Below are positions 4,690 to 39,909 of a DNA stretch of 40,771 nt, in pieces. The translations under genes were made by a program, and so were the position numbers. The notes under the pieces were generated by a model that saw only the letters and a list, made by a program, of their open reading frames with translations, had not been told where the DNA came from and did no database searches. Each line of letters opens with the position of its first letter. The first letter of the stretch is position 1. The stretch lies in sequence record PQ999132.1. One strand, 5' to 3'. The DNA is from Escherichia phage BUCT789.

Positions 4690-4875
4690 ATGGGTGAGTG
4701 GATTAAGTGTAGTGAGCGGATGCCTGAGCCTTATGAATACGTTCTTGTAACTGATTGTTTTGTTGGCTGTGAGGTTATGCGTGTTAATTCAGATGGCTAC
4801 TGGGGGCCTGCAAAGAGTTTATATCACGGTGATATAACGCACTGGATGCCGTTACCTGAGCCGCCGGAGGTGTGA
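4690..4875 (+). CDS. DUF551-like small phage protein
   Basis: 61 aa with EW...PE...VLV...HWMPLPEPPE pattern recalled for DUF551; not verified by search. Confidence 0.55.
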   Translation: MGEWIKCSERMPEPYEYVLVTDCFVGCEVMRVNSDGYWGPAKSLYHGDITHWMPLPEPPEV

Positions 4876-5383: not shown

Positions 5384-5531
5384 TTTCGTGGTGCAAGCAA
5401 TGTACGCTGAGGAAATGGCAAAAAGTATGTTAGAGCAAACATTACATTTCGCTAAGCTGCAAGGGTTCGACGTACAGACAGTAGGCGACGAAATAGTATT
5501 GACCGAGAAGTCGGAGAACGGCGATGAGTAA
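5376..5531 (+). CDS. small hypothetical protein (51 aa)
   Basis: ATG 5376 with AAGGGG RBS; overlaps neighbours at both ends. Confidence 0.4.
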   Translation: MNNFVVQAMYAEEMAKSMLEQTLHFAKLQGFDVQTVGDEIVLTEKSENGDE

Positions 5532-5883
5532 CAATGACGCAGTAATCGAGTTCCTGTTTAACCAACTACAGCAGCAGCTAACGAACAACCCATACAAGCA
5601 ACAGTGTGAAGACCTGGCGCATGAGGTGCAGTCACTTAAGAATCAGTTACGCGATATGTCGGAGCTGGTGGATGCGCTACCGGGGACGATAACGTTAATG
5701 AACGGGAAATCTAGTTGCCGTAAAGAAGACGCGCAGGAATGCGAGCATGATTGGTTGCATAGTAAACACAAAAGCGGCTTCGTTTGCTTTAAGTGTGGGG
5801 CGCGCGAAGAGTGTGAACACGATTGGTACTTTTACGATAAAGGCGCGTCGATGATGTGCAAGAAATGCGGGCTGAAGAAATGA
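5524..5883 (+). CDS. zinc-ribbon protein with two CEHDW...CxKCG units
   Basis: 119 aa; ECEHDW...CFKCG and ECEHDW...CKKCG repeats; paralogous unit in 8369..8608. Confidence 0.65.
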   Translation: MSNNDAVIEFLFNQLQQQLTNNPYKQQCEDLAHEVQSLKNQLRDMSELVDALPGTITLMNGKSSCRKEDAQECEHDWLHSKHKSGFVCFKCGAREECEHDWYFYDKGASMMCKKCGLKK

Positions 5884-6083
5884 CCAGCATCCTCTTTATC
5901 TGGGTACTGTCCGCAGGCCAGATGCAACTGGCGGCAGCAGAAACGTTTTATTCGATGGAGGCGTGCCAGTCAGCGGCACGCGCCGCAGAGAACGCGCACT
6001 TCCTGTTTCAGGGCGACAAGCCCAACGATTCAGAGGTACGCGCTATCTGCTCACCTAAGCGACTTGGTAAACAGGAGAGATAA
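5880..6083 (+). CDS. small protein with N-terminal hydrophobic segment
   Basis: ATG 5880 overlaps upstream stop (ATGA); N-terminus MTSILFIWVLSAG. Confidence 0.5.
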   Translation: MTSILFIWVLSAGQMQLAAAETFYSMEACQSAARAAENAHFLFQGDKPNDSEVRAICSPKRLGKQER

Positions 6084-6376
6084 TGTCTCTTGCAACTGAC
6101 ATCCTGAAACGAAGCGGCCTTGCGCCGCTGTCACCGAGAGCGAAGACACGTATACACAAGCGTCGCCGTAACGTGCTGTACCCAGAGATACAAGAACGGC
6201 GTAAAGCTATCCGCGCCTGTGGATTCCAGAACGGAAAGGCCGTGAATCTCGGTGAGTTTAAAACACAGGAACGCGCAGCTATCGCTAATCGGCTATTTAA
6301 TTACTGGAAATCGCTGGGGTACGATGATATTCCGACGAAACCGCAGAGACGGCAATACATCTGGAGACACAAATAA
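6083..6376 (+). CDS. basic hypothetical protein (97 aa)
   Basis: ORF directly after the previous stop; K/R-rich. Confidence 0.55.
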   Translation: MSLATDILKRSGLAPLSPRAKTRIHKRRRNVLYPEIQERRKAIRACGFQNGKAVNLGEFKTQERAAIANRLFNYWKSLGYDDIPTKPQRRQYIWRHK

Positions 6377-6385
6377 ACCGTTATT

Positions 6386-6446
6386 AGGATAATTCCTACC
6401 CGTGGTATCCTCCAGTTACTGCATACTTAATACGCACCTGGAGGAT
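6386..6446 (+). promoter_or_regulatory. alternative RNA hairpins over the holin ribosome-binding site
   Basis: Perfect 9-bp inverted repeat atcctccag (6407-6415) / ctggaggat (6438-6446), the latter containing the holin SD; competing aggata (6386-6391) / tatcct (6406-6411) pairing. Confidence 0.45.
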
Positions 6447-6451
6447 TCATC

Positions 6452-6760
6452 TTGGATAAATTTACTGAAACAGTGACGGGCTGGCTTCTCGCTGCCGCAC
6501 TCGCCGGAGGGGTCATCGGACTACGACAACATAAGTCCGTTATTTCTGGCCCTATCGACGGCTTCTGCTTCATCGCTACTGGTTTCGCCTGCGCCGTATT
6601 TGGCGCCCCTCTTGCAGCTCAATGGTTCGGTATCACGGGCGACCGTGAAATCGCTGGCCTGGGCTTTATCATCGCTATTCTCTGGATGCCTATTTATTCC
6701 CGTCTCTCCGGTATTGTTGCCGGAGAATACATCTCACGTCGAGGAGGCCCGGATGAATGA
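6452..6760 (+). CDS. holin (class I-like, three predicted TMDs)
   Basis: TTG start 7 nt after GGAGGA; three hydrophobic segments; directly upstream of the endolysin. Confidence 0.65.
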   Translation: MDKFTETVTGWLLAAALAGGVIGLRQHKSVISGPIDGFCFIATGFACAVFGAPLAAQWFGITGDREIAGLGFIIAILWMPIYSRLSGIVAGEYISRRGGPDE

Positions 6761-7025
6761 GTTATTCTGGTTCGGCGGTATGCTGGCAATAGGGGGTACA
6801 TCGCTGTTTAATGTGTATCACCCCAGCGTTGACGATGGGCTATTTGGTCGTGTGCTCTATATCCTGACAGCTATCGTCTGCGCCGCCGGGTGTATCCACC
6901 TGTTACAGGGCAGCATGTCGCCCACGTTGCCTGAGACATTAATCACATTAGTTGCACTGCGCCAGATTCGCCAGGCGTGGCTGTCATATGGAGGACATAA
7001 GCGTGTCTCGAAACATTTCAGATAA
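6753..7025 (+). CDS. small membrane protein (second holin or antiholin candidate)
   Basis: ATG 6753 overlaps the holin stop (ATGAATGA); two hydrophobic segments; part of track ORF 6600..7025. Confidence 0.5.
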   Translation: MNELFWFGGMLAIGGTSLFNVYHPSVDDGLFGRVLYILTAIVCAAGCIHLLQGSMSPTLPETLITLVALRQIRQAWLSYGGHKRVSKHFR

Positions 7026-7488
7026 TGGATTGCATTTTACCGCTGCGTTCGAGGGATTCCGCGGAACTGCGTATCGTGCTACGCCTAACGAGAAGTACCT
7101 TACTATAGGCTACGGGCACTATGGGCCTGACGTAACCCCGGGTAAGACCATCACACCGGGACAGGGCTTGCTGTTACTGAATCGCGATATGGCTAAGGCT
7201 GTAGCTGCTGTTGACGCAGCAGCACACCATTCACTGACACAGGCACAGTTCGATGCAGTGTGCGACCTGGTATATAACGCAGGTGCTGGTGTGATTGGGG
7301 TTACTACCGGAACCGGTAAGGCGCTACATAGCGGTGATATTTCGACGCTGCGGGCTAAACTGGCGCTGTTCATCAACCAGAACGGCAAACCGTTACTCGG
7401 CCTGCGTCGCCGTACCGCAGGCCGCCTGGCGCTGTTCGATGGCAAGCCGTGGCAAGAGGCTGAGGCTATCGGGAGGGCTGTTAAATGA
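6988..7488 (+). CDS. endolysin, GH24 lysozyme-like muramidase
   Basis: FEGFRGTAYR...LTIGYGH matches the T4/lambda lysozyme catalytic region; no N-terminal signal-anchor. Confidence 0.8.
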   Translation: MEDISVSRNISDNGLHFTAAFEGFRGTAYRATPNEKYLTIGYGHYGPDVTPGKTITPGQGLLLLNRDMAKAVAAVDAAAHHSLTQAQFDAVCDLVYNAGAGVIGVTTGTGKALHSGDISTLRAKLALFINQNGKPLLGLRRRTAGRLALFDGKPWQEAEAIGRAVK

Positions 7489-7615
7489 TGGACGAATATG
7501 AAGGCGTTTAGTAAACTTATCCCTACGCTGTTTGTGCTTGCATACTAAGCCCCGGTAAACCCGAAGCAGCAGCCCAAGCGGTGGAGACTGCGTAGGGTTC
7601 AGGGGCTTATGACCG

Positions 7616-7645
7616 AAACCCGGACCGCGAATCCGGGTTTTATTT
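7616..7645 (+). terminator. rho-independent terminator
   Basis: cccgg/ccggg stem followed by ttttatttt. Confidence 0.6.
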
Positions 7646-7651
7646 TACCAA

Positions 7652-7680
7652 TTGACACCTAAGACTAATCCGACGATACT
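7652..7680 (+). promoter_or_regulatory. sigma70-like promoter, TTGACA-N17-GATACT
   Basis: TTGACA 7652-7657, 17-nt spacer, GATACT 7675-7680; only about 45 nt upstream of a terminator. Confidence 0.4.
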
Positions 7681-7686
7681 TAAATC

Positions 7687-7750
7687 ACCTCCTGTTCCAT
7701 CCCTCTGCTCTCCAGTTTTATCCCGGCCCTGACCCAGCCGGGATTTTTTT
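7687..7750 (+). ncRNA. candidate small RNA (about 60-65 nt) between promoter and terminator
   Basis: No ORF; contains AUCACCUCCU resembling the 16S rRNA 3' end, then terminator hairpin. Confidence 0.3.
7720..7750 (+). terminator. rho-independent terminator
   Basis: atcccggc/gccgggat stem followed by a 7-T tract. Confidence 0.65.
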
Positions 7751-7772
7751 ATCTGTTTTCCACAATGACTAG

Positions 7773-7801
7773 TTGACTATTACCATCGACCCTATTATAT
7801 T
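7773..7801 (+). promoter_or_regulatory. sigma70-like promoter, TTGACT-N17-TATATT
   Basis: TTGACT 7773-7778, exact 17-nt spacer, TATATT 7796-7801; drives the 7835-9589 small-gene block. Confidence 0.55.
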
Positions 7802-7834
7802 TACTCCATCGACAACGAGAACGGAGTATAGAAG

Positions 7835-7984
7835 ATGAAAATCACAGATATCGAAGCATTCAAAGACGCACAACTGATGGCACGTATCGCCGTTAGTAAC
7901 CTTAGTAGCAGTATCCCCGCTGACGCGTTCTGGTTCGCAGCGATGCAGACCCTGAAAGCAGCTTATGCAGGAGAGAAGAAATGA
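7835..7984 (+). CDS. small hypothetical protein (49 aa)
   Basis: ATG 7835 after GGAG; ends GEKK with GGAGAGAAGAAATGA junction into the next gene. Confidence 0.45.
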   Translation: MKITDIEAFKDAQLMARIAVSNLSSSIPADAFWFAAMQTLKAAYAGEKK

Positions 7985-8133
7985 GCGAACAAGGTCAGGT
8001 AAGCCAACCGTTACGAGTAGGCCGTAAAGTCAGTCACACCCCGTTCCCTACACGCGAGGAACTGATGAAACGTAACAGTTTCCCTGGGCCGGACAAGAAC
8101 AAGTATCTCAATCGCATGTGGGGAGAGAAGAAA
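7981..8133 (+). CDS. small hypothetical protein (50 aa)
   Basis: ATGA-coupled to neighbours; the same GGAGAGAAGAAATGA junction recurs at its 3' end. Confidence 0.45.
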
Positions 8134-8369
8134 TGACTGACCGTGAATACGAAAAGATGATGGTAGAGGCTGTTAACGGCGGCATAGACATCAGCCACGT
8201 GATGCACGTCCTGAATACTAAAATCGCTGTAGCGGAGCAAATGGTTGAGTCGCTTTATGAGACGCGCCGTGAACTGATTAACCGCTTCAACCTGAACAAA
8301 CCTGCTCCTACTAACGACGATTTTGATGGCGATTACAGAAATGGTGATTTTTATGAGGGAGCAGAATAA
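8130..8369 (+). CDS. acidic hypothetical protein
   Basis: ATG 8130; track ORF 8118..8369 starts at an upstream non-ATG codon. Confidence 0.55.
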   Translation, partial: EMTDREYEKMMVEAVNGGIDISHVMHVLNTKIAVAEQMVESLYETRRELINRFNLNKPAPTNDDFDGDYRNGDFYEGAE

Positions 8370-8608
8370 TGCCTAAAATCACAATCGCATCACTCGAGCG
8401 TCGTATTCTGGTGCTTGAGTCAGAGAAACAGACGTTAGGCGGGCAACTGTCAATTAATGGTGAGTTTCAACTGGAGGCGTTTAAGTTGTTGCTTGATAAG
8501 TTGAAAGCGGACGAAAAGCCTTGCGAGCACGATTACTACCTACATGTGGTTGGTGGATTACATCGGGCCACGTGCATCAAATGCGGTAAAGCGTATGGAG
8601 TCGCCTAA
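8369..8608 (+). CDS. zinc-ribbon protein (CEHDY...CIKCG), paralog of 5524..5883
   Basis: 79 aa; N-terminal coiled-coil-like region then PCEHDYY...CIKCGK. Confidence 0.6.
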   Translation: MPKITIASLERRILVLESEKQTLGGQLSINGEFQLEAFKLLLDKLKADEKPCEHDYYLHVVGGLHRATCIKCGKAYGVA

Positions 8609-8777
8609 GCCGGTAGTTATTGAGGGCGTCCTGTGGAAACCTTACTCGGTTAACCACATCGACGCCGACGGGAAGAAGTTCAGCTTCTACATTTTTGCAA
8701 TTAGCCGGGAGCACGCCGCTTGTGTGGTAGACGATATACGAGAAACGGCGTGGCTTGGTGATGAGATAGTGGGGTGA
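8595..8777 (+). CDS. hypothetical protein
   Basis: Likely ATG at 8595 inside track ORF 8544..8777; overlaps the upstream stop. Confidence 0.45.
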   Translation: MESPKPVVIEGVLWKPYSVNHIDADGKKFSFYIFAISREHAACVVDDIRETAWLGDEIVG

Positions 8778-9063: not shown

Positions 9064-9296
9064 TTACCAGCATCCCTAAACTGATCGAAGAGTACGGCAA
9101 TATGTCTGAGACATGCCGACAAACCGGCATCAGCGAAATGACGATTGCGAAGTACCGCAACGACGTGAACTGCGAGCGACATGTAATTTATAACAACCGT
9201 CTGATGACACACGTTAAGACAAGCCCGGTGTTATTCACGCGCCGTGGTATCACTAAAACAGAGCAACGTATTGCTAAAGAGGAGAGTGGGGAATGA
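9060..9296 (+). CDS. small HTH-like protein (possible regulator)
   Basis: HTH-like stretch SETCRQTGISEMTIAKYRN; TTG start at 9060 or internal ATG at 9102. Confidence 0.45.
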   Translation: MITSIPKLIEEYGNMSETCRQTGISEMTIAKYRNDVNCERHVIYNNRLMTHVKTSPVLFTRRGITKTEQRIAKEESGE

Positions 9297-9589
9297 GTGA
9301 GATGAAACCTTGCAGATGTTGTGGCATTAAACAAAGCCCGGTTGATGAAAAGAACGCTGAATACGAAACACTCGTCAGCTTAGTGCTTCAATGTGGTGAT
9401 GAGAAGCAATTATTGACTCTTATCGACATTATGCGGTCCAAGATAACAACCTGTGTATCGTCGTCTGACCCTAACAAACTGCCGTACCCTGATAAAGAGT
9501 TGTGGCACGTACGAATCATGGTTGATGCTGTTATGATTTTGCAGGATAAGTTATTAACCCGTAGTATGCGAAAGGAGGGCGGGGAATGA
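9293..9589 (+). CDS. hypothetical protein (98 aa)
   Basis: ATGA-coupled to upstream gene; Cys-rich N-terminus (CRCCG). Confidence 0.55.
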   Translation: MSEMKPCRCCGIKQSPVDEKNAEYETLVSLVLQCGDEKQLLTLIDIMRSKITTCVSSSDPNKLPYPDKELWHVRIMVDAVMILQDKLLTRSMRKEGGE

Positions 9590-9691
9590 GACTACTAATC
9601 ATCCCCAACGCATGGGCTATCGCCGTAGCTAACGACCATTACGGCGGCGATGGTAAAAGAGCACCACGACACGGCCTATATAACTGATACA

Positions 9692-9714: not shown

Positions 9715-9808
9715 GTACATCCCGCCCAATCCCCTTATATAATCCCTTTAGACGCGTAGGGCGCGTCTGGTGCGCTCTGATGGTCAGACGCATATGCAAG
9801 GGGATTTT

Positions 9809-10354
9809 ATGAAGCTGAAACTCAAGCAGCCATCGCCAGAGGTGGTGCAAGCTGCACATGAAGAAGCTGTTAGCGCAAACCGTCGACGTAATCGACCGCG
9901 TGGCAAACAGAGCCTTTATCAATCATCCCGTAATTCCGCCGCGTTGTGGGACCCGGACTATTGTGACGCGCTAATCGAGTTCTTCGATCGCACGTCATGG
10001 GAACTCGTCCCTACATCTAAGGGTGACGAACGCCCGCTGATTCAGGATAAACCCCCATCACTGGCCCGCTTCGCCTTACATATCGGCGTTACTATCCCGA
10101 TTATTAAGCTGTGGCTGCGTGAGATTCCCGCATTTGCAGAAGCCTGGGAGACCGCACAGGCACTTGAAGAGGCTTATTTCACTGAGACAGGGGCCGCAGG
10201 TATCTCTGCTACGTTCGCTGCGGCTAAGCTGGGCCTCGGCAAAGAGAAACCGGTTGAACCCACCGAAGAAACGGCACCGACTGAGATTATTTTCAGTGTT
10301 GCGGAGCCTGTAGGTAAAATTGTAACAACGAATATGGGCGAGGTAGAGGAATGA
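9809..10354 (+). CDS. terminase small subunit (putative)
   Basis: ATG 9809 with AAGGGG RBS; basic N-terminus; stop overlaps the large-subunit ATG. Confidence 0.6.
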   Translation: MKLKLKQPSPEVVQAAHEEAVSANRRRNRPRGKQSLYQSSRNSAALWDPDYCDALIEFFDRTSWELVPTSKGDERPLIQDKPPSLARFALHIGVTIPIIKLWLREIPAFAEAWETAQALEEAYFTETGAAGISATFAAAKLGLGKEKPVEPTEETAPTEIIFSVAEPVGKIVTTNMGEVEE

Positions 10355-11601
10355 GTATTCAGCTATCCGCACCGCAGGCACTGTTCCTGAATTGTGACAA
10401 TAAATATAAGGCCTATGTCGGCGGCTTCGGCAGTGGCAAGACGTTTGTCGGCTGCCTTGACCTGCTTACGTTTATGCTCAAGCACCCCGGTACGCGCCTT
10501 GGCTACTTCGGCCCGACCTATCCCGCCATCCGTGACATCTTCTACCCGACATTCGAGGAAGCGGCTAACCTGCTCGGCCTTGATGTGCTGGTTAAATCCG
10601 GAGACAAAGAGGTTGTGGTTACTCGCGGTAAGACGGTACTAGGAACTGTTATCTGCCGCTCGATGGATAACCCTGGTTCGATTGTGGGTTTCAAAATCGC
10701 CGCCGCGGTCGTGGATGAGTTGGACGTATTGAGCCGCGAGAAAGCCGAGCTGGCGTGGAACAAAATTGTGGCCCGTATGCGTCTTGTTATCCCCGGCGTA
10801 ATTAACCACATCTCCGTAACCACGACGCCAGAAGGGTTCAAGTTCGTCTACGCCAAGTTCAAAGAGAATCCGACACCGAGTTACTCGATGGTGCAGGCTT
10901 CCACACACGAGAATGCGCGTTTCCTGCCGCCGGATTACATTAGCTCGCTCACCGAGACTTACCCGGCGCAGTTGATTAACGCGTATCTGAACGGTGAGTT
11001 CGTCAACCTTACCTCCGGCAGCGTGTATTACGCATACGACCGCCGTAAGCACCGCAGCAAAGAGACAATTCAACCTGGCGACACGCTGTACATCGGGCAG
11101 GACTTCAACGTTACGAAGAACGCAAGCGCCGTGTATGTGCAGCGTAAAGACGGCTGGCACGCGGTGGCAGAACTGAAAGGCCTGTTCGATACACCGGACA
11201 CCGTGAGAGTGATTACGGAGAAGTGGAAGTCGCAGGGCCACCGCATTGTCGTTTACCCCGACGCCAGCGGCAAGAACCGCAAGACCAACTCGGCATCGAT
11301 CTCAGATATTGCATTACTCCAGCAGGCCGGGTTCGATGTTCGCGCTAAATCCGCCAACCCCCCGGTTAAAGACCGTGTTTTAGCAGTGAATACCGCGCTG
11401 GAAAAAGGTAAGCTGTGGGTTAATGACCACTTATGCCCTGAGATAGCGAAGACGCTGGAGCAGCAGGCATATGATGATAACGGAGAGCCCGCTAAAGACG
11501 GCGTCATTGACCATATGGCGGATGCTCTCGGCTATCCTGTAGTTTACGAGATGCCGGTGGTTAAACCAGTAATCAACATCCCGGTGACTTTCGCACTTTA
11601 A
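10351..11601 (+). CDS. terminase large subunit
   Basis: 416 aa; Walker A GGFGSGKTF near N-terminus; Walker B-like VVDELD; position upstream of portal. Confidence 0.85.
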   Translation: MSIQLSAPQALFLNCDNKYKAYVGGFGSGKTFVGCLDLLTFMLKHPGTRLGYFGPTYPAIRDIFYPTFEEAANLLGLDVLVKSGDKEVVVTRGKTVLGTVICRSMDNPGSIVGFKIAAAVVDELDVLSREKAELAWNKIVARMRLVIPGVINHISVTTTPEGFKFVYAKFKENPTPSYSMVQASTHENARFLPPDYISSLTETYPAQLINAYLNGEFVNLTSGSVYYAYDRRKHRSKETIQPGDTLYIGQDFNVTKNASAVYVQRKDGWHAVAELKGLFDTPDTVRVITEKWKSQGHRIVVYPDASGKNRKTNSASISDIALLQQAGFDVRAKSANPPVKDRVLAVNTALEKGKLWVNDHLCPEIAKTLEQQAYDDNGEPAKDGVIDHMADALGYPVVYEMPVVKPVINIPVTFAL

Positions 11602-32739: not shown

Positions 32740-32877
32740 CTACTCGTCTGATAACTTCTCCAGTACAAACGCCAGTTGCGCATTAGCGGCGTCTCTCTGT
32801 TGCCGTAGTCTTAGGACTTCCTCTTCGAGTTCCTTGATACGTTTTTGCAATGCCGGAATTGGGGCTATGATGTTCAT
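32740..32877 (-). CDS. small coiled-coil protein (45 aa; absent from the ORF track)
   Basis: Minus ATG 32877 overlaps the helicase stop (ATGA); product MNIIAPIPALQKRIKELEEEVLRLRQQRDAANAQLAFVLEKLSDE. Confidence 0.4.
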   Translation of the reverse strand: MNIIAPIPALQKRIKELEEEVLRLRQQRDAANAQLAFVLEKLSDE

Positions 32878-34304
32878 TTCTTACCTCGTCTCTTCATGTA
32901 ATTAAGCAACTCTTCCTGTACAGATTTCTTCTCGTCCGTACGCGCGGCAACAACCTCATCCAGCGTGTCTTTGGCAACGATATGATAGAGGAACACTGGG
33001 CGCTCGTGGCCTGCCTGTTTCTGGCGGACCGGGCCTATACGCTCGACAACCTGCAAATAGTGCTCAAGGTTCCAGCCTTGCGAGATGAATGCCAGATGAT
33101 GTCCGCCGTCCTGTAAATTCAAACCATGACCGGCTGACGCAGGGTGGACACATAAGATTTCGATTTCCCCGCGGTTCCACGCTTCCATCTGCTTATTACC
33201 CTTGGCGCCTTTTGCAAACGCCTGTGCCTGCGGGAATCGCTTAAGGATGCGCTCCAGTTCATGCTTAAACTGATAAGCCACAAGCAACGGTGCGCCCTGT
33301 AACTCCTCAACGATAGACTCCAGCGCATCCAGTTTCGTGTCGTGCACTTTCTCCCAGTCTTTGGTTGCCTCACCGTCTGGCCCCGACACATATACGGCAC
33401 CGGAGGCAATCTGCAAACACTTTGACGTCTTCGCCGCCGCGTTAGCCGCTTCAACTTCTCCGCTCTCCAGTTCCGCGAATAACTTCTCCTCCATATCGAT
33501 GTACGCCTGACGCGCCTTCTTCGGCAGGTCGATTTCAACCGGAACAATAATCGGCGCTTCGCAACCGAACCACTCTGCGGCGTCAATAGTGAGACTGATG
33601 TCCTTCATCTTCTGGTGAATTTCATTATCCGCGCCAGGGCGCGCATGATACTCACGCGCCATCGCGGATTTGCCTTTCTGTACCGAGTTAAACCAGCGGT
33701 CGGTGAATGCGGTGTATGAAGAACCGAGCCGCTCGCCCGCGTCGATAAACCAGTTCTGACCCCACAGGTCCTTGAGTCCGTTTGGCGACGGTGTGCCCGT
33801 CAGGTTAATGAAACGCTTAACTTTACCGAACGCAACCTTGCTGAGGGCCTTAGCCCTTTTGCTACCACCTGAACGGCTGCGGAACGATTTCAGCTTCGTG
33901 CTCTCATCAGCAACAATAACCGTAAAAGGCCAGTCGTCTTTGCCGTAGTAGTCAATAAGCCATTCGATAACTTCGTAGTTCGTGCAAACCACGTTAGCAT
34001 CCGACTCCAGCGCCGCGATGCGGCGCTTCTCTGAACCAGTCGCATCGACGACACGCAGACAAGGGAAGTTCCAACGTGCCTGTTCCGCGGGCCACGTACC
34101 TGACGCAACACGTAAAGGGGCAAGAATTAACACTCGGTCGTCGTCATTAAGTTGCCCATTACGGAACAGTCGATTGAGAACCCACAACGTTGACCCCGAC
34201 TTGCCGCTGCCCATCGAAGCCCAAATATTACAGCGAGGGTGCCGCAGCATGAACGAAGTCATGAGCTTTTGGTACTCTCGACGGATAAATTTAGACATAA
34301 TCAA
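32874..34304 (-). CDS. SNF2-family (DEAD-like) helicase/ATPase
   Basis: 476 aa; Walker A GSGKSG, DExx-type VIVADEST, LTGTPSPN (SNF2 motif III), HGLNLQ. Confidence 0.8.
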   Translation of the reverse strand: MIMSKFIRREYQKLMTSFMLRHPRCNIWASMGSGKSGSTLWVLNRLFRNGQLNDDDRVLILAPLRVASGTWPAEQARWNFPCLRVVDATGSEKRRIAALESDANVVCTNYEVIEWLIDYYGKDDWPFTVIVADESTKLKSFRSRSGGSKRAKALSKVAFGKVKRFINLTGTPSPNGLKDLWGQNWFIDAGERLGSSYTAFTDRWFNSVQKGKSAMAREYHARPGADNEIHQKMKDISLTIDAAEWFGCEAPIIVPVEIDLPKKARQAYIDMEEKLFAELESGEVEAANAAAKTSKCLQIASGAVYVSGPDGEATKDWEKVHDTKLDALESIVEELQGAPLLVAYQFKHELERILKRFPQAQAFAKGAKGNKQMEAWNRGEIEILCVHPASAGHGLNLQDGGHHLAFISQGWNLEHYLQVVERIGPVRQKQAGHERPVFLYHIVAKDTLDEVVAARTDEKKSVQEELLNYMKRRGKK

Positions 34305-34495
34305 CCCTTAACGTAGAGCACCAGCTCTTTACGCCCGAACGCCGTAACGTTACCCGTTACATCTTCGATAACCAGTTTACCGTTCGACTCGACGAACACC
34401 GTATCAACGGCAACCGGACGTCGGGTCTTAACGTTGAAAATCATGTCGCCCGGTACGATGTCACGTGCGGGTTTGCGGTCATATTCGTGTTTCAT
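34301..34495 (-). CDS. hypothetical protein (64 aa)
   Basis: Stop overlaps the helicase ATG (ATGA). Confidence 0.5.
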   Translation of the reverse strand: MKHEYDRKPARDIVPGDMIFNVKTRRPVAVDTVFVESNGKLVIEDVTGNVTAFGRKELVLYVKG

Positions 34496-34516
34496 TTCTC
34501 AATTCCTTATAGTTAA

Positions 34517-34530
34517 GGCCCCGAAGGGCC
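34517..34530 (-). terminator. intra-operon hairpin (attenuator-like)
   Basis: ggccc-cgaa-gggcc; moderately T-rich downstream on the minus strand. Confidence 0.35.
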
Positions 34531-34534
34531 TGTA

Positions 34535-34789
34535 TTAGTTAGATAATTCGCCTTGAACTTGCTTAATAAGTTCTCTGGCCGTTGTGAAGTCTACGGACAG
34601 CCCTTTAGCGACGTCTTCCGCAAGCACCTTGTGGCCAACTGACCCGAAGCCCAGGATACGGTTTACTTCCGAAACCTTCATATACCATGAGTAATTAACT
34701 GACGCCCCTGTGTATTTACCGATACGAACAGATGAATCGATTGAACCAATAATCATGGTGTTTACTGACAGTTGAAGTTCGATAGCCAT
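34535..34789 (-). CDS. hypothetical protein (84 aa)
   Basis: ATG 34789 immediately follows the VRR-NUC stop. Confidence 0.5.
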   Translation of the reverse strand: MAIELQLSVNTMIIGSIDSSVRIGKYTGASVNYSWYMKVSEVNRILGFGSVGHKVLAEDVAKGLSVDFTTARELIKQVQGELSN

Positions 34790-34790
34790 T

Positions 34791-35105
34791 TTATAATTCC
34801 TTATATTGTTGGGGTATGTGCTTACTATAATAGTCTGCTATTAGGGTGTCAATCTGTTTTATCGAACCAACGACAAAAACATTTGCGCCACGTTTGCGCA
34901 TCCGCTCATGCTCACGTAGCTGGTGGGGGTCAGGCTTCGTGTTTTCGTCTTTCTTAACCTCGACGAACCAGACGACGCCGCCGGGGAGAATTGCCAGCAG
35001 GTCGGGGGCGCCGGAACGCCCCTCGTAGGAAAGTTTACGAACGAGGCCACCAAGGGCCTCGAATCGCTCCTTTGCATATTTCTGTATTTTGCCTTCCGGG
35101 GTCAT
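34791..35105 (-). CDS. VRR-NUC domain nuclease
   Basis: Motif GAPDLLAILPGGVVWFVEVK; start taken as ATG 35105 overlapping the upstream small ORF stop; track lists TTG 35120. Confidence 0.7.
   Translation of the reverse strand: MTPEGKIQKYAKERFEALGGLVRKLSYEGRSGAPDLLAILPGGVVWFVEVKKDENTKPDPHQLREHERMRKRGANVFVVGSIKQIDTLIADYYSKHIPQQYKEL
34824..34852 (-). promoter_or_regulatory. sigma70-like promoter, TTGACA-N17-TATAGT (minus strand), inside the 3' end of the VRR-NUC gene
   Basis: + strand tgtcaa 34847-34852 and actata 34824-34829, 17-nt spacer. Confidence 0.45.
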
Positions 35106-35254
35106 GAGCGCAGAACCCAAGTAAGGAAAGCCCCGCCCAGAACGGCAACACCGACAAAATTAAAGAACAGGCCATAGCAGAACATCGCGGCTATTCCCGC
35201 ACCGAGTAGAAGTGCGAGCATGGTTACTATCGTCCAAAATACAAACATTGTCAT
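35102..35254 (-). CDS. small hydrophobic membrane protein (50 aa; absent from the ORF track)
   Basis: GAGGGG RBS; product MTMFVFWTIVTMLALLLGAGIAAMFCYGLFFNFVGVAVLGGAFLTWVLRS; stop overlaps the VRR-NUC ATG. Confidence 0.45.
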   Translation of the reverse strand: MTMFVFWTIVTMLALLLGAGIAAMFCYGLFFNFVGVAVLGGAFLTWVLRS

Positions 35255-35336
35255 AATACGCACCCCTCACGTTTCGTGTGCTCAATCCCGCAGCGCGGAC
35301 AGATTCGACAGTCTTCTTCATAGAACCAGTAGATTT

Positions 35337-35468
35337 TCATTCCAGCACCCACAGATAAATTGCGATGAACATACCTAATACGGCTACAATCATGCCGTAT
35401 TGGCCCTCGTGACAGTAGACACCGGCGGCAAATCCCGCCAGTACTGCGATAATCAGTTTACTTAGCAT
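35337..35468 (-). CDS. small hydrophobic membrane peptide (43 aa; absent from the ORF track)
   Basis: ATG 35468 overlaps the 3' end of the polymerase gene; product MLSKLIIAVLAGFAAGVYCHEGQYGMIVAVLGMFIAIYLWVLE. Confidence 0.4.
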   Translation of the reverse strand: MLSKLIIAVLAGFAAGVYCHEGQYGMIVAVLGMFIAIYLWVLE

Positions 35469-37731
35469 AACGGTACACCTCTTCCCCAGCCCATGTTAAC
35501 GGGAACCCTTCGGCCCACTCAGGTAATGAGCATAGCAGGTCACCCATCTCTTTAACCGTGTACTCTGGCGTGTCTGGCGTTTCGGCAACACATTCGTCAT
35601 GTACGTGGAGTACAATTGGGTAGCCCGCCGCCTCGACCGTCAGGAGTCCGTTAACCAGTAAATCACGGCACAACGCCTGGATGATGTTTTCACACAATTT
35701 TCCGCCGTGGGTGTACAAAGTTGTCCACTGGCGGGTGGTCTGATTTTCACCCTGATACTTAATGCGGACGTTAGTAGTAACGCGCCCATCCTCGTCAGTC
35801 TCTTTAGTGACGCTTAAGCCTATGCCAGGGTAGGACATGATGCGCCCAGACGGCAGTTCCACGCACAACCACCAACCCGGAACCGGATTACCGTGGTTGT
35901 CTTTTTCTTTGGTACGCCAGATGCGGATGGCTCTGTCGCCGTTAAGGCGTACTCGGGCCCCCGCCCAAAACTCTCGTCCCGGATTTCTGATGGCGGCTAT
36001 CACCGAATCCTTAAGGTCATTCCAGAATTTCACTGTTTCCGGATGGGCTTCCCGCCACATGCGCTTAATGGCGTCACAGGTGCGCCAGACTTCTTTAGGC
36101 AGCACATAAGAGGCCCGTTCATCTTTTTTACCAGGCTTTGGCGGGCGTTTAGCCTCCTGAATTCTGGCCCATTCGTAGCCACGGGCGGTAGCCGCCCAAA
36201 TGTGGTCGGGGAACGTGCCCCGCATTGTCTCTGTCATTTTAAAGAGGTCCAGCCCGTAAGTTTTAGCCATAGTCATAAAAGCCCCTACGCCCCCCTCGTA
36301 GCCGAGGCCGAGTTCGCAACATTTCCCGACCTGACGTAGGTCCTTACGGGTGGCTTTTAGTTCTACGGGGTCCATGCCAAACATCTTGCCCGCGGTGGCG
36401 CAATAAATATCAATCCCTGCGCGGAAGGTCTCAAGCGCGGATGTCTCCCCCGCGGTCCAGGCCAACCCGCGCCCTTCTACGTTTGAGTAGTCGGCAACGA
36501 GCAACTTATTACCCTTTTCAGGGATGATGCAACTGCGAACAGTCGAGGCTGTCAGCTTGGATACGTCGAAACGACGGTGCGCCCGACCCTTTAGCAGCAG
36601 ATTGATGCCGAACGATAGGGGGTTGAGACGACGGTTCCAGTCTTCGTCGGACTCCCACGGCTGGCGTACAAGTTTCTTCTCCTCGTTAGTCGGGTCATCA
36701 TGATAGTACCCGCGCGACAGGTTCTGCGGCTGGAACCCTTTACCCGCAAATCGTAAAGTGCGCTTTGCCCCACCGTACTGGATGCAACCGCGGCGGCGGC
36801 CGTCTTTGGACCGTCCTAGCAGGAGCGGTTTGTATTTTGTCGACGCCGTGGAGGCCGCGCCGAGGCGCATCTCAATGATTGTGCGCGCATCGTCAGGTAA
36901 GTCGTCGTCCTCTAGCAAACCTTCGAGCGTTGCTTTCTGCGCATTATAGATATTGTAGGCCGGTGCCAGCTCCCGAAGGATTGGCAGGAAGTCTTTACCC
37001 GTTAGCTTCCCGCCAAATTTAGCCCTGGCCTCGTTTTTTAGCTCTTGCTTGTGGCGTTCAACTGCTGCTACCGCCGCCTCAGCAAGAGCCGCATCAACAA
37101 AGAAGCCTCGGTCGTTGATTAACTGGTCAAGTTCAAGTACACGGTCCTCGAAATCGGAGTTACCCCAACGTGGCAGCTTATGGAAGACTTCACGCATCGC
37201 TGTGATGTCGCTCACGGCGTACTTGATGAACAGCGCCCATTCGTCCGGGTGCGTTTCGGCGGTGTAGCGGCGGATTTTATAGTTCTTCGGGGTTGGTTTG
37301 GAGAAACGCTGAATCAGAGCCTTGCCACGTTTATCTTTCGCGTTGTCGGCGGATACGCCCAGCACTTCGCATAATGCGTCAAGTGAACCCGGCAGCGCGT
37401 GGCGAAACGCCCAAATCATAGTGTCAATGGTGTTGCTGACCGGAATATCGAAGCCCCAGCAGTTCTTCATGATGAGCCTATCGAAAAGTCCACCGTTATG
37501 CCACACCATCTTAATGCGACTGTTTGGCTTCACCAGACGGCGTAACGCGCGGTGTAAATCTCCCGGCATGTCGCTGCCGTCAGTGCAGTCCCATACCTGA
37601 ACAGGCTCGTCATCAAAAGCATAGGTGCAGATGAGCACTTCGGTAGTCGGGTGTTCGGCGTAAGCATAGGAGCCGACTTTCTTCAAATCGGCTTCGGAGA
37701 AGGTTTCAAAGTCTAAGAACAGATAACTCAT
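35458..37731 (-). CDS. family A DNA polymerase with N-terminal 3'-5' exonuclease domain
   Basis: 757 aa; exo motif LDFETFSE; motif A DYSNVEGRGLAW, motif B RQVGKCCELGLGYEGG, motif C LHVHDE. Confidence 0.9.
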   Translation of the reverse strand: MSYLFLDFETFSEADLKKVGSYAYAEHPTTEVLICTYAFDDEPVQVWDCTDGSDMPGDLHRALRRLVKPNSRIKMVWHNGGLFDRLIMKNCWGFDIPVSNTIDTMIWAFRHALPGSLDALCEVLGVSADNAKDKRGKALIQRFSKPTPKNYKIRRYTAETHPDEWALFIKYAVSDITAMREVFHKLPRWGNSDFEDRVLELDQLINDRGFFVDAALAEAAVAAVERHKQELKNEARAKFGGKLTGKDFLPILRELAPAYNIYNAQKATLEGLLEDDDLPDDARTIIEMRLGAASTASTKYKPLLLGRSKDGRRRGCIQYGGAKRTLRFAGKGFQPQNLSRGYYHDDPTNEEKKLVRQPWESDEDWNRRLNPLSFGINLLLKGRAHRRFDVSKLTASTVRSCIIPEKGNKLLVADYSNVEGRGLAWTAGETSALETFRAGIDIYCATAGKMFGMDPVELKATRKDLRQVGKCCELGLGYEGGVGAFMTMAKTYGLDLFKMTETMRGTFPDHIWAATARGYEWARIQEAKRPPKPGKKDERASYVLPKEVWRTCDAIKRMWREAHPETVKFWNDLKDSVIAAIRNPGREFWAGARVRLNGDRAIRIWRTKEKDNHGNPVPGWWLCVELPSGRIMSYPGIGLSVTKETDEDGRVTTNVRIKYQGENQTTRQWTTLYTHGGKLCENIIQALCRDLLVNGLLTVEAAGYPIVLHVHDECVAETPDTPEYTVKEMGDLLCSLPEWAEGFPLTWAGEEVYRYAK

Positions 37732-37751
37732 TATTTTGACCCTTAGTAAAA

Positions 37752-37769
37752 AGGCCCAATAAAGGGCCT
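37752..37769 (-). terminator. rho-independent terminator/attenuator between SSB-like and polymerase genes
   Basis: aggccc-aataaa-gggcct; minus strand continues with TTTTTACT. Confidence 0.5.
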
Positions 37770-37789
37770 TAATTAAACAGATTCAGATA

Positions 37790-38422
37790 TTAACCACGGC
37801 GACGACGTTCGCGGCGCGGTGCTTCATCTTCTTCGTCGTCTTCCAGGTCGTCGGTGCTCGCTACTACACTGGAGCCGCCGAAGCGTTTACCTTCGCCCAT
37901 ATACTTGATGCCGAGGATGGTAGCGCACAGGTTTTTCCAATCTTTGTGCCACCATAATTCTACAGATACGTTTGCGATACATCCGCTATATACCTGCTCG
38001 CCTTCTATTTCTTTCCCGTCGATGTTGAAATCAGGCTCGGTTTGTTTTTCACCTTTAGCCGATGTCATAATCACCGGTTGGCGGTTGTTTGTAGCGCGGA
38101 AATACAGACCTTCTTCAAAATCCTCAATCGGATTATCTCGCATTGCCAGGTCACGGACGCAGCATTTGTCTGCGTGGTGGTCTGCACCGTAGTTGGCCTT
38201 CATCCATTTCTCGGCAGCAGCGGCCCCGATTGCATCTGTTACAACTTCCAACGCGGTGTCGTAAAGCGCATCAATTTGAGGATGGTCAGGCTGCATAAGA
38301 ACAGTAACCTGATACTTACCCTTAATCAGTTTACCGGTTTTCTTGTCCTCAGAGTCGGCAGCACGTTCAAATACGTTAACCCATGCAGTGTTTACTTTAC
38401 GCAGATTCAGTTTAATACCCAT
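37790..38422 (-). CDS. single-strand DNA-binding protein candidate (DUF2815-like) with acidic C-terminal tail
   Basis: 210 aa; C-terminus STDDLEDDEEDEAPRRERRRRG; sits next to the Cas4-like nuclease. Confidence 0.5.
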   Translation of the reverse strand: MGIKLNLRKVNTAWVNVFERAADSEDKKTGKLIKGKYQVTVLMQPDHPQIDALYDTALEVVTDAIGAAAAEKWMKANYGADHHADKCCVRDLAMRDNPIEDFEEGLYFRATNNRQPVIMTSAKGEKQTEPDFNIDGKEIEGEQVYSGCIANVSVELWWHKDWKNLCATILGIKYMGEGKRFGGSSVVASTDDLEDDEEDEAPRRERRRRG

Positions 38423-38479
38423 CGTGATTTCTCGCTTTTCAGTTTCGTTTACTCCGGGAGCTGCCCGGCCAGTGATTTA

Positions 38480-38508
38480 ACTATAATAGTTAGCTATTCA
38501 GGAGTCAA
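38480..38508 (-). promoter_or_regulatory. sigma70-like promoter, TTGACT-N17-TATAGT (minus strand)
   Basis: + strand agtcaa 38503-38508 and actata 38480-38485, 17-nt spacer. Confidence 0.5.
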
Positions 38509-38512
38509 CACT

Positions 38513-39754
38513 TTATTCTAAATCTTCTTCACTAACCTGATTCCACCCAGGCCGTTTGTCGTCTGCCGTTGCGACACATGGTGCGCCGGGCTTACGGGTA
38601 ATGAAGTCTTTCAGTTCTTCCTCCGGTATTACTTTAACCGCTTCGGCCGGCGTCATAAGAACTACCTTTTGCAGCATAGTGCCGTACTTCTCAAATACTG
38701 CATCGGTATCTTTCCACGCACGATTACCAGGACGACCTTCAACCAGCTTATACCCCGGCACTTTCTTACCGGAATGCAAAGCGGCTGCCATAGCTTTCTC
38801 AACCTTGTCGATGTGCTGGCGCAACAACGGCAACTTCTCGTACTCAGCTACGAGTTGCTCTGGTGTCAGTTCCAGTGCAAAGTCGCCCTCCAGTTCTTCC
38901 GCCAGTACCGAGTTAACGGTTTTTGTACGCGTGGCGCACTGTTCCGAGAACCGACACCACTGACATCCATCGACCGACGGCCTGAAGTCCGACGCTTTCA
39001 GGTTCTTTTTACCACGGAAATACGCATCAAGCGCCAACAGAGCTCGTTTCTGCGCGAACTTAGCGAACAGTTCCAGACCCTCGACCGAGATGTCCCATTC
39101 CGAAGCACCCCCGGCGTACGGCTGGAAAATAACCAGACGAACAACTGTGATGTTATAACGTCTCTTGAGTCGTCGATAAACACCGAGAGCGTAAAGCATA
39201 AGCTGCTTGTTTTCTTTCGCTTCAACACGATGTCGTCCTGTTTTAAGGTCGCCGATAATGAGCATGTGCTCGTCGGTGTTAACCAGTTCCTGTACGGCAA
39301 CAAGGTCGGCGGTTCCGAACGTCTCGACACCTTCATAACCTGGATGCAATACCTCAGTAAGATTGACGCGCATTTCCAGCTTGGCGTAAGTAGCTACGTC
39401 GATAATCGGTTTGCTGTAGTCGGTGTACTTGCGCACCTGCTCAATCATGTCGGCCGTAATCAGTACCGCCCCTTTCATCGGGCTGATTAGCGCCTTAATC
39501 TGGCCTTTACCCTCATCCAGCACATAAGCACCGACTTCGCGCTCTAACGGCAACGCAGTTCCGCGAATATAAGCGTTGAGATGTACCTCAGCTATGGTGT
39601 GGCACGCAGTACCTGTAACAGCCGCTTTACCTGACGTGTTAGGAATATCTTTTTCACAGGCCAGTGACGCCGCGCAGCTTAGCCACTTTTTAGCTCCCGA
39701 CGGTGACAGTAAGGCGTGTACATCGTTATTTCCGCCGCGTTCTTTTAGTTTCAT
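38513..39754 (-). CDS. Cas4/RecB-like PD-(D/E)XK exonuclease with Fe-S cysteines (DUF2800-like)
   Basis: N-terminal Cys plus C-terminal CQWCRFSEQC; IGDLKTGR...EAK nuclease core; ends SEEDLE; start ATG 39754 (track lists 39775). Confidence 0.7.
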   Translation of the reverse strand: MKLKERGGNNDVHALLSPSGAKKWLSCAASLACEKDIPNTSGKAAVTGTACHTIAEVHLNAYIRGTALPLEREVGAYVLDEGKGQIKALISPMKGAVLITADMIEQVRKYTDYSKPIIDVATYAKLEMRVNLTEVLHPGYEGVETFGTADLVAVQELVNTDEHMLIIGDLKTGRHRVEAKENKQLMLYALGVYRRLKRRYNITVVRLVIFQPYAGGASEWDISVEGLELFAKFAQKRALLALDAYFRGKKNLKASDFRPSVDGCQWCRFSEQCATRTKTVNSVLAEELEGDFALELTPEQLVAEYEKLPLLRQHIDKVEKAMAAALHSGKKVPGYKLVEGRPGNRAWKDTDAVFEKYGTMLQKVVLMTPAEAVKVIPEEELKDFITRKPGAPCVATADDKRPGWNQVSEEDLE

Positions 39755-39909
39755 GCTCTTAAACTCCCGCCCCATTTAACTTTACGCGTTTTGCGTTTAT
39801 AGGCGCACGTGTCGCCGCTACGGTTGAAGATGATCAGCCAAGTCGAGTTGCTTACTCGAAAAGGCTGGTGACGTTTAATAAAGATAAGTCGCGCTTTACG
39901 GTTCGTCAT
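39751..39909 (-). CDS. small basic hypothetical protein (about 52 aa; absent from the ORF track)
   Basis: ATGA-coupled at both ends within the leftward operon. Confidence 0.35.
   Translation of the reverse strand: MTNRKARLIFIKRHQPFRVSNSTWLIIFNRSGDTCAYKRKTRKVKWGGSLRA

Follow-up and report, generated by a model that had tools for sequence, protein, structure and literature searches.

Two small genes of Escherichia phage BUCT789 carry a predicted zinc-ribbon unit that is shuffled among phage gene families

What is the short cysteine- and histidine-containing unit that recurs in two small genes on either side of the lysis cassette of Escherichia phage BUCT789, how did it come to be in both, and what might it do? 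The stretch analyzed (sequence record PQ999132.1; 40,771 nucleotides (nt), hereafter the window) holds gene A (plus strand, 5524–5883, 119 amino acids (aa)), which encodes a coiled-coil stalk followed by two Cys-His-Cys-Cys (CHCC) units, and gene B (plus strand, 8369–8608, 79 aa), which encodes a helical hairpin followed by one such unit. A preliminary description made from the sequence alone had taken the two products for paralogous zinc-ribbon proteins whose unit may be a metal-binding module duplicated within the early region of this genome. The comparisons reported here indicate that the unit is, with high probability, a zinc ribbon whose first knuckle, C-x-H, is unusual, and show it to be a recombined cassette, combinatorial in the family of gene A and alternative to acidic or aromatic tails in the family of gene B and in a third family. 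What is new is the use of a predicted zinc ribbon with this first knuckle as a cassette that is shuffled on small helical proteins of phages; the fold itself is known.

Genes A and B and their CHCC units

Both open reading frames (ORFs) and all three motifs are present where the preliminary description had placed them. In gene A, unit 1 (CEHDWLHSKHKSGFVCFKCG, plus strand, 5740–5799; motif ECEHDWLHSKHKSGFVCFKCG) has the putative ligands C73, H75, C88 and C91, and unit 2 (CEHDWYFYDKGASMMCKKCG, plus strand, 5812–5871; motif ECEHDWYFYDKGASMMCKKCG) has C97, H99, C112 and C115. The single unit of gene B (CEHDYYLHVVGGLHRATCIKCG, plus strand, 8522–8587; motif PCEHDYYLHVVGGLHRATCIKCGK) has C52, H54, C69 and C72. 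The strict pattern C.H[DE][WYF]-x8-16-C.KCG is found three times in the six-frame translation of the window and not once in 100 shuffles. The spacing first given for gene B, x11 after CEHDYY, is correct, whereas those given for gene A, x11 and x12 after CEHDW, are wrong, both being x10.

As far as sequence can tell, A and B are genuine, non-essential accessory genes of Kagunavirus. A ribosome-binding site of GGAG type lies 7 nt before the ATG of each, the start of each overlaps the stop codon of the ORF ahead of it (translational coupling), and both are annotated coding sequences in sister phages. The window itself is of Kagunavirus (Guernseyvirinae), and its 3.5-kb query region has 98.3% identity with Escherichia phage Henuyfy11N and 95.9% with phage AV104; the product of gene A is identical to Henuyfy11N Gp39, automatically named ‘cell division protein’, and that of gene B to Gp46. 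Gene A falls in phrog_6094 (E 3.7e-30) and gene B in phrog_9023 (E 7.8e-41), both uncharacterized. The query region matches 397 GenBank phage records, essentially all of them Salmonella or Escherichia Guernseyvirinae (Kagunavirus, Jerseyvirus), and the accessory status of A and B follows because only 253 records carry A and 115 carry B, all from Salmonella or Escherichia Guernseyvirinae-type phages. In a collection of 5.8 billion proteins, gene A has 764 homologue clusters and gene B 284. None of the proteins analyzed has a membrane segment.

A hidden Markov model of the unit, built from 37 diverse units, was run on 240 homologues of A and B, with no requirement for the ligands. It detected 316 units, of which 311 keep the first cysteine, 313 the histidine, 301 the third ligand (cysteine), 303 the fourth (cysteine) and 300 the glycine that follows, such that the four putative ligand positions are 95–99% conserved, with most misses being truncated sequences. 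The stretch of 10–16 residues that separates the ligand pairs varies strongly, and the consensus is a unit of 25–30 residues, C-x-H-[DEN]-[WYF]-(beta-hairpin, 10–16 residues)-C-x-x-C-G. Loss of the motif in homologues had been named beforehand as an observation that would count against a compact conserved module; the motif is conserved, and the variable loop and zinc-ribbon-like predicted secondary structure agree with such a module as well.

Structure predictions with AlphaFold2, using family alignments, place three helices in A (residues 3–20, 23–60 and 67–72; mean predicted local distance difference test (pLDDT) 74), followed by beta-hairpins at 77–79/86–88 in unit 1 and 101–103/110–112 in unit 2. 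The model of B (mean pLDDT 80) has helices at 6–22 and 29–47 and a beta-hairpin at 56–61/64–69. In all three units the C-x-H lies just before strand 1 and the C-x-x-C at the end of strand 2, and as the ligand pairs flank each predicted hairpin, the models have the layout of a zinc ribbon, with two ligand knuckles around a beta-hairpin. From the ligand pattern we strongly infer that the unit would bind Zn(II).

The predicted helices also uphold the coiled-coil-like N-termini that had been noticed at the outset. Residues 1–64 of A (plus strand, 5524–5715) are predicted to form a helical stalk that is acidic (isoelectric point 4.5) and better conserved than any other part of family A. Residues 24–60 follow an unbroken heptad, with L, I, V, M or F at 9 of the 11 a/d positions compared to 8% of other positions, and the stalk as a whole is polar and acidic, with a maximum 19-residue hydropathy of 0.36. 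It is joined to unit 1 by the linker S-C-R-K-E-D-A-Q-E (plus strand, 5713–5739), which is conserved in family A. The helical hairpin predicted for residues 1–47 of B (plus strand, 8369–8509) has a mean pairwise identity of 88% in its family, compared to 62% for the unit when the ligands are left out, and homologues pair this hairpin with other C-terminal tails.

The sequence and structure searches that had been proposed as a check returned weak local matches, every one of them to a zinc finger or ribbon (TFIIB, NudC, ribosomal zinc ribbons, A2L, Zn_Ribbon_TF and C2H2) and none significant. The best Pfam match of A was A2L_zn_ribbon, at 11.6 bits compared to a cut-off of 22.9 (E 0.23), B had zero Pfam matches, and neither reached the gathering threshold of the zinc-ribbon families (PF08271, PF08792, PF12773, PF13240 and others). 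NCBIfam held nothing relevant for A or B, and scans of A, B, the neighboring gene C and many homologues with Pfam, NCBIfam and PADLOC found no significant family. PADLOC gave only a coiled-coil-level match to LmuB at E 0.01, and none for B, C or family D (C and D are described below). Foldseek searches of the PDB with the models of A and B yielded nothing at E <= 0.001, those of BFVD only uncharacterized Guernseyvirinae homologues, and a PDB sequence profile search with family A only coiled-coil noise and a weak match to Gp5.9, which is taken up below. The literature held nothing relevant on small zinc proteins of Kagunavirus, Guernseyvirinae or Jerseyvirus, or on zinc-ribbon anti-defense proteins.

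The closest known fold is the TFIIB/TFB-type ribbon (PF08271, Zn_Ribbon_TF), which likewise spans 25–30 residues, with two short knuckles around a beta-hairpin of ~12–17 residues and C-x-x-C-G as the second knuckle. The ligands of human TFIIB are also Cys-His-Cys-Cys, and one homologue (P0076) has a precomputed PF08271 match. The two differ in the first knuckle, which is C-P-x-C/H in the TFIIB ribbon and C-x-H followed by an acidic and an aromatic residue in the CHCC unit, and in that the CHCC unit comes as shuffled tandem cassettes on the coiled-coil stalks of tiny phage proteins.

A cassette on at least four small-gene families

The likeness between A and B is confined to the unit. In BLASTP the alignment of the two proteins is restricted to it (E 9e-5), and a profile–profile comparison aligns 29 unit columns (probability 69%, E 4e-5) and no part of the N-termini. 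Paralogy of the whole proteins is therefore ruled out, as the N-termini are unrelated and only the ~29-residue unit aligns. Within gene A, the CEHDW shared by the two units is encoded as tgc gag cat gat tgg in one and tgt gaa cac gat tgg in the other, and there is no DNA-level repeat between them. This excludes a recent DNA duplication of the two units and indicates that their similarity is kept by selection on the protein.

Members of family A consist of the conserved stalk (MSNKNEVFEYLIDQLRQQ...QCEDLAHEVQSLKNQLRD), a variable middle, the conserved linker (E)QSGCRKEDxxE and then one to four units. About nine unit types are found in 41 different orders among 120 cluster representatives, every one of which retains at least one intact unit. 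The orders obey rules in these representatives: types a and c open an array, types b, d, g and h close it, and e and f are always paired. Gene A of the window has type ‘a’ (LHSKHKSGF) as unit 1 and type ‘b’ (YFYDKGASM) as unit 2. Some members of family A (P0056, P0096, P0242 and P0276) have, in addition, a ~60-residue domain inserted between the stalk and the units, with the pattern ..W.EH.GACPVP.D..V.I.F.NG......A..W.W.....YEIVAYR, which matches phrog_9174, phrog_26870 and phrog_16943, all uncharacterized.

In family B the unit is one of several possible C-termini: 69 of 120 clusters have it, and the other 51 have an acidic/aromatic tail in its place (...EEEQKLLLSPEFDYGVDDESA or ...DEEDWEHSLQDLWQY). 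The same holds for a third family, traced via a cross-hit to phrog_1402, whose copy in the window, gene C (plus strand, 8133–8369, 78 aa from MTDREYEK), adjoins B upstream. After the conserved INRFNLNK, gene C of the window ends in the acidic tail DDFDGDYRNGDFYEGAE, and other members of family C end there in this same tail, in a short tail, in GDTNAIDAGKISGVKLED or in a CHCC unit, CEHEFDYNPKDMCGQCIKCG. The unit is found in 9 of 120 family C clusters, including one with 344 member sequences; ORF41 of K1ind2 is an example. A fourth family, D (phrog_29624), combines an N-terminus beginning MVQRY with an A-type linker and unit, and is found in AV104 and about 100 other phage records. In AV104 it lies at 2293–2664 of the AV104 stretch, two genes downstream of gene A. 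It is absent from the window, where, as in Henuyfy11N, different small ORFs occupy the site, which marks this site as a hot spot of gene replacement. The set of unit-bearing genes accordingly differs between phages, being A, C and B in K1ind2, A, D and B in AV104, and only A and B in the window.

Genes A and D of AV104 share 19 identical nt in the linker core with unrelated flanks, and the 38-nt linker is 84–95% identical in 145 phage records, while most family A proteins are less than 60% identical overall. A search of IMG/VR for the exact linker 19-mer gave no match. The A-type linker and unit are also found on other N-termini, and unit types are mostly family-specific, with a few exchanges such as a b-type unit on a phrog_18511 scaffold. 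Sequence comparison places the cassette in no fewer than four families of small genes in Guernseyvirinae.

The unit also extends beyond these phages. A 30-position profile searched against 1.84 billion representative proteins gave 87 matches at E <= 0.001, including arrays of five to six units. Among these matches are small proteins that consist almost entirely of three to five tandem CxHxW...CxxCG units (P0293, P0278, P0260, P0269 and P0271), proteins of 2,600–4,500 residues with N-terminal arrays of CEHEWVTDPET..CSKC, and secreted, lipoprotein-like proteins containing related (G)HxWxxAxCxxPxTCxxCG repeats. For ten distant proteins that bear the unit, a look-up of their clusters led to metagenomic sequences only, no curated domain fits these proteins, and tblastn of the five-unit metagenomic P0293 against GenBank phages found no match. 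The distant metagenomic matches, in the absence of any curated domain, point to a widespread, uncurated zinc-ribbon variant. Duplication within the BUCT789 genome, as first proposed, does not account for a cassette that sits on at least four Guernseyvirinae families, is shuffled in one of them and is found in unrelated metagenomic proteins as well.

Possible roles of the stalks and units

As the hairpin evolves fast while the ligands and stalks are fixed, the units are most likely protein-recognition surfaces. The four invariant residues would coordinate a single Zn(II) and stiffen the hairpin, the stalk would oligomerize and present two or more variable hairpin heads, and these heads would most likely be directed against variable factors (host, or possibly phage, proteins) in host take-over or counter-defense. 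A catalytic role, or a uniform role in nucleic-acid binding, is less likely; net charges of −5 to +5 across unit types speak against a nucleic-acid target common to all of them. Taken jointly, accessory genes carrying a zinc-ribbon cassette, whose products would be oligomeric stalks bearing interchangeable heads for contacts with the host, form a reading to which we give about an even chance, and within it the step from binding heads to host take-over or counter-defense is the part that we infer from the pattern of variation.

Several points weigh against this reading. Confidence of the AlphaFold2 models over the units is moderate (pLDDT ~65–84), metal binding is predicted from the residue pattern only, and there is no characterized homologue, with Pfam, NCBIfam, PADLOC, PDB (by sequence and by fold) and BFVD giving only uncharacterized relatives. 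The units of the window are mildly basic (+1 to +2), which is compatible with nucleic-acid binding by these copies, and the fast evolution and shuffling may reflect mere weak constraint on a dispensable tail. Three alternative explanations were weighed.

In the first, the products of A and B would be zinc-finger regulators that bind DNA, RNA or RNA polymerase, like P2 Ogr, P4 Delta or Mu Com, and control the downstream lysis and morphogenesis genes. The position of the genes upstream of the lysis, terminase and structural genes on the same strand, the tandem arrangement of the units, the mildly basic charge of the window's copies and the nature of the weak nearest matches, which are transcription-factor zinc ribbons of TFIIB/A2L type, are all consistent with this. 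P4 Delta is a tandem duplication of an Ogr-like zinc unit, and Ogr and Delta are, like A and B, small phage zinc proteins, although zinc is only predicted for the latter. Membership in the Ogr/Delta family was rejected, as there is no PF04606 match (Pfam E <= 1) and the ligand pattern differs (C-x2-C-x22-C-x4-C in Ogr and Delta, which also have no coiled-coil stalk and no sequence match to A or B), and neither Pfam nor NCBIfam gave a match to any other regulator family. Many Guernseyvirinae do without these genes. In addition, the free variation in unit number, type and charge and the replacement of the unit by acidic tails in families B and C are hard to reconcile with a conserved regulatory target. 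We consider a regulatory role unlikely.

In the second alternative, the Cys/His pattern would be a structural staple or have no function, with the tails being weakly constrained recombination junk and the function residing in the helical N-termini. Families B and C do tolerate replacement of the entire unit, and in a few homologue units a ligand is gone (in P0006, P0060 and P0249, for instance, R takes the place of C). Such loss is the exception, however: all 120 family A representatives keep an intact unit, the ligands are conserved over very divergent loops and in the face of synonymous codon differences, and the module recurs in the 87 significant matches among 1.84 billion proteins, including the five- to six-unit arrays. 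This explanation appears improbable to about the same degree as the regulatory one.

A third alternative, which we rate slightly lower still, centers on the stalk. Here family A would be a Gp5.9-like DNA mimic, in which an acidic parallel coiled coil blocks the DNA site of RecBCD, MukBEF or another DNA-end-binding defense enzyme and so shields the linear genome of the phage, while the zinc units would contribute affinity or specificity. Gp5.9 of phage T7 (PDB 8b1r and 9gmb), an inhibitor of RecBCD and MukBEF, is an acidic parallel coiled-coil dimer that blocks RecBCD by DNA mimicry (PMC9836394), and like A it is a small phage accessory protein with an acidic coiled coil. It was among the top PDB matches of the family A profile (E 0.16–0.19, positions 27–56 aligned with Gp5.9 19–48), a pairwise hhalign comparison of the A stalk with Gp5.9 gave a probability of 82% over 28 columns with 39% identity and an identical SLKNQL, and BLASTP of A against Gp5.9 gave E 0.002. 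One homologue, P0252, matches phrog_9014 (‘Gp5.9-like inhibitor of recBCD’) at E 6e-4, and the N-terminal half of A, with its low isoelectric point and perfect heptads, may form such a dimeric parallel coiled coil.

The match to Gp5.9, however, is confined to a short stretch of coiled coil, a type of sequence in which resemblance often arises by chance, and is not significant database-wide (PDB E 0.16). Gene A of the window has no match to phrog_9014 at E <= 0.1, nor has any of 49 family A members at E <= 0.01. The acidic residues through which Gp5.9 contacts Arg and Lys of RecB and RecC are D4, D11, D15, D21, E24, E36, D38, E39 and E45 (Table 1, PMC9836394). Of the six in the aligned part, only three are acidic in A (D21, E36 and E39), as E24 is replaced by A, D38 by S and E45 by P, while D4, D11 and D15 have no counterpart in A. 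The aligned segment has a net charge of about −3 in A (−4 with His33 uncharged), compared to −7 in Gp5.9, which is more acidic and is without zinc units. As an addition to head swapping rather than a substitute for it, Gp5.9-like DNA mimicry might nevertheless be a further activity of the stalk in family A.

Finally, Rip1 (PDB 9oox), a prophage-encoded pore-forming sensor of the small terminase, resembles A in being a phage-encoded protein of ~120 residues that has a helix at its N-terminus and a small domain at its C-terminus, and was the top Foldseek PDB match for A, but this match is noise (E 0.66, template modeling score 0.30, root mean square deviation 11.6 Å), Rip1 is absent from the PDB profile matches of family A at E <= 10, the A stalk is polar and acidic as opposed to membrane-active and amphipathic, and the lead was dropped after follow-up in the literature and in the HK446 genome.

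Returning to stalks with exchangeable heads, most of the host take-over and counter-defense functions left to find are among small phage ORFans, and here two ‘hypothetical proteins’ become a defined object, an uncurated zinc-ribbon variant with the signature C-x-H-[DEN]-[WYF]-x10-16-C-x-x-C-G and a catalogue of head types. Natural domain-swap variants occur in hundreds of sequenced Salmonella and E. coli phages, of which many are candidates for therapy, and if the heads are target-recognition modules, these natural chimeras would map specificity directly. In its most specific form, the proposal is a modular counter-defense toolkit, in which oligomeric stalks carry swapped zinc-stabilized heads, recombination takes place at the conserved linker or junction, and each head has its own host target. 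We regard this form as doubtful, and if true, it would be of a kind not yet described. If the heads are not recognition modules, the unit would be one more zinc ribbon, of value for annotation as a new Pfam or PHROGs domain model.

Genomic setting and neighboring genes

The replication genes of the window lie on the minus strand, with an AAA_25 primase-helicase at 597–2855 and, at 32874–39775, an SNF2 helicase, DNA polymerase A, an Enc34-type single-stranded DNA-binding protein and a PD-(D/E)XK nuclease. A long plus-strand gene array starts at ~3800 and consists of small ORFs, a holin-endolysin cassette (plus strand, 6452–7488), more small ORFs, the terminase (plus strand, 9770–11601) and the structural genes. 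Gene A belongs to the first small-gene cluster and gene B to the second, with the two clusters flanking the lysis cassette. Both genes share their strand with the lysis, terminase and structural genes and are located upstream of the last two groups; ‘early region’, the label first given to this part of the genome, is a putative one. Further small genes directed at the host occupy this region in relatives; in fEg-Eco06, for example, it encodes an inhibitor of RNA polymerase resembling T7 Gp2.

The small genes are interrupted by a single non-coding gap of appreciable size (7489–7834), which contains two sigma-70-like promoter matches, each at 10 of 12 consensus positions: one at 7652–7680 and one, TTGACT-17-TATATT (plus strand, 7773–7801), upstream of the cluster with genes C and B. 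These consensus matches suggest that this cluster has its own host-type promoter; the total of sigma-70-like matches in the promoter scan is not above shuffle expectation, and 7773–7801 is to be read as a consensus match only.

Two pairs of repeated junctions were observed among the small genes. The junctions at 7970–7984 and 8122–8136 are near-identical (GGAGAGAAGAAATGA in both), as are those at 9280–9297 and 9573–9590 (AGGAGnGnGGGGAATGAG in both). All are of the type that combines a ribosome-binding site with an ATGA/ATGAG start/stop overlap, and both pairs form borders of consecutive small genes, making them possible boundary sequences for mosaic recombination.

Three further small ORFs deserve mention. 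Downstream of B, the plus-strand ORF 8544–8777 overlaps the 3′ end of B; as its match to phrog_10509 begins at residue 18, the true start is probably the ATG at 8595, with an overlap with B of 14 nt. The 98-aa plus-strand ORF 9293–9589, just upstream of the small terminase gene, begins MSEMKPCRCCGIKQSP and is annotated as ‘zinc finger protein’ in Henuyfy11N; its cysteine pattern differs from that of the CHCC unit, and it is without a significant PHROG or Pfam match. The 61-aa plus-strand ORF 4690–4875 (MGEWIKCSERMPEPYEYVLV...ITHWMPLPEPPEV) is one that we take to resemble a DUF551-type phage protein.

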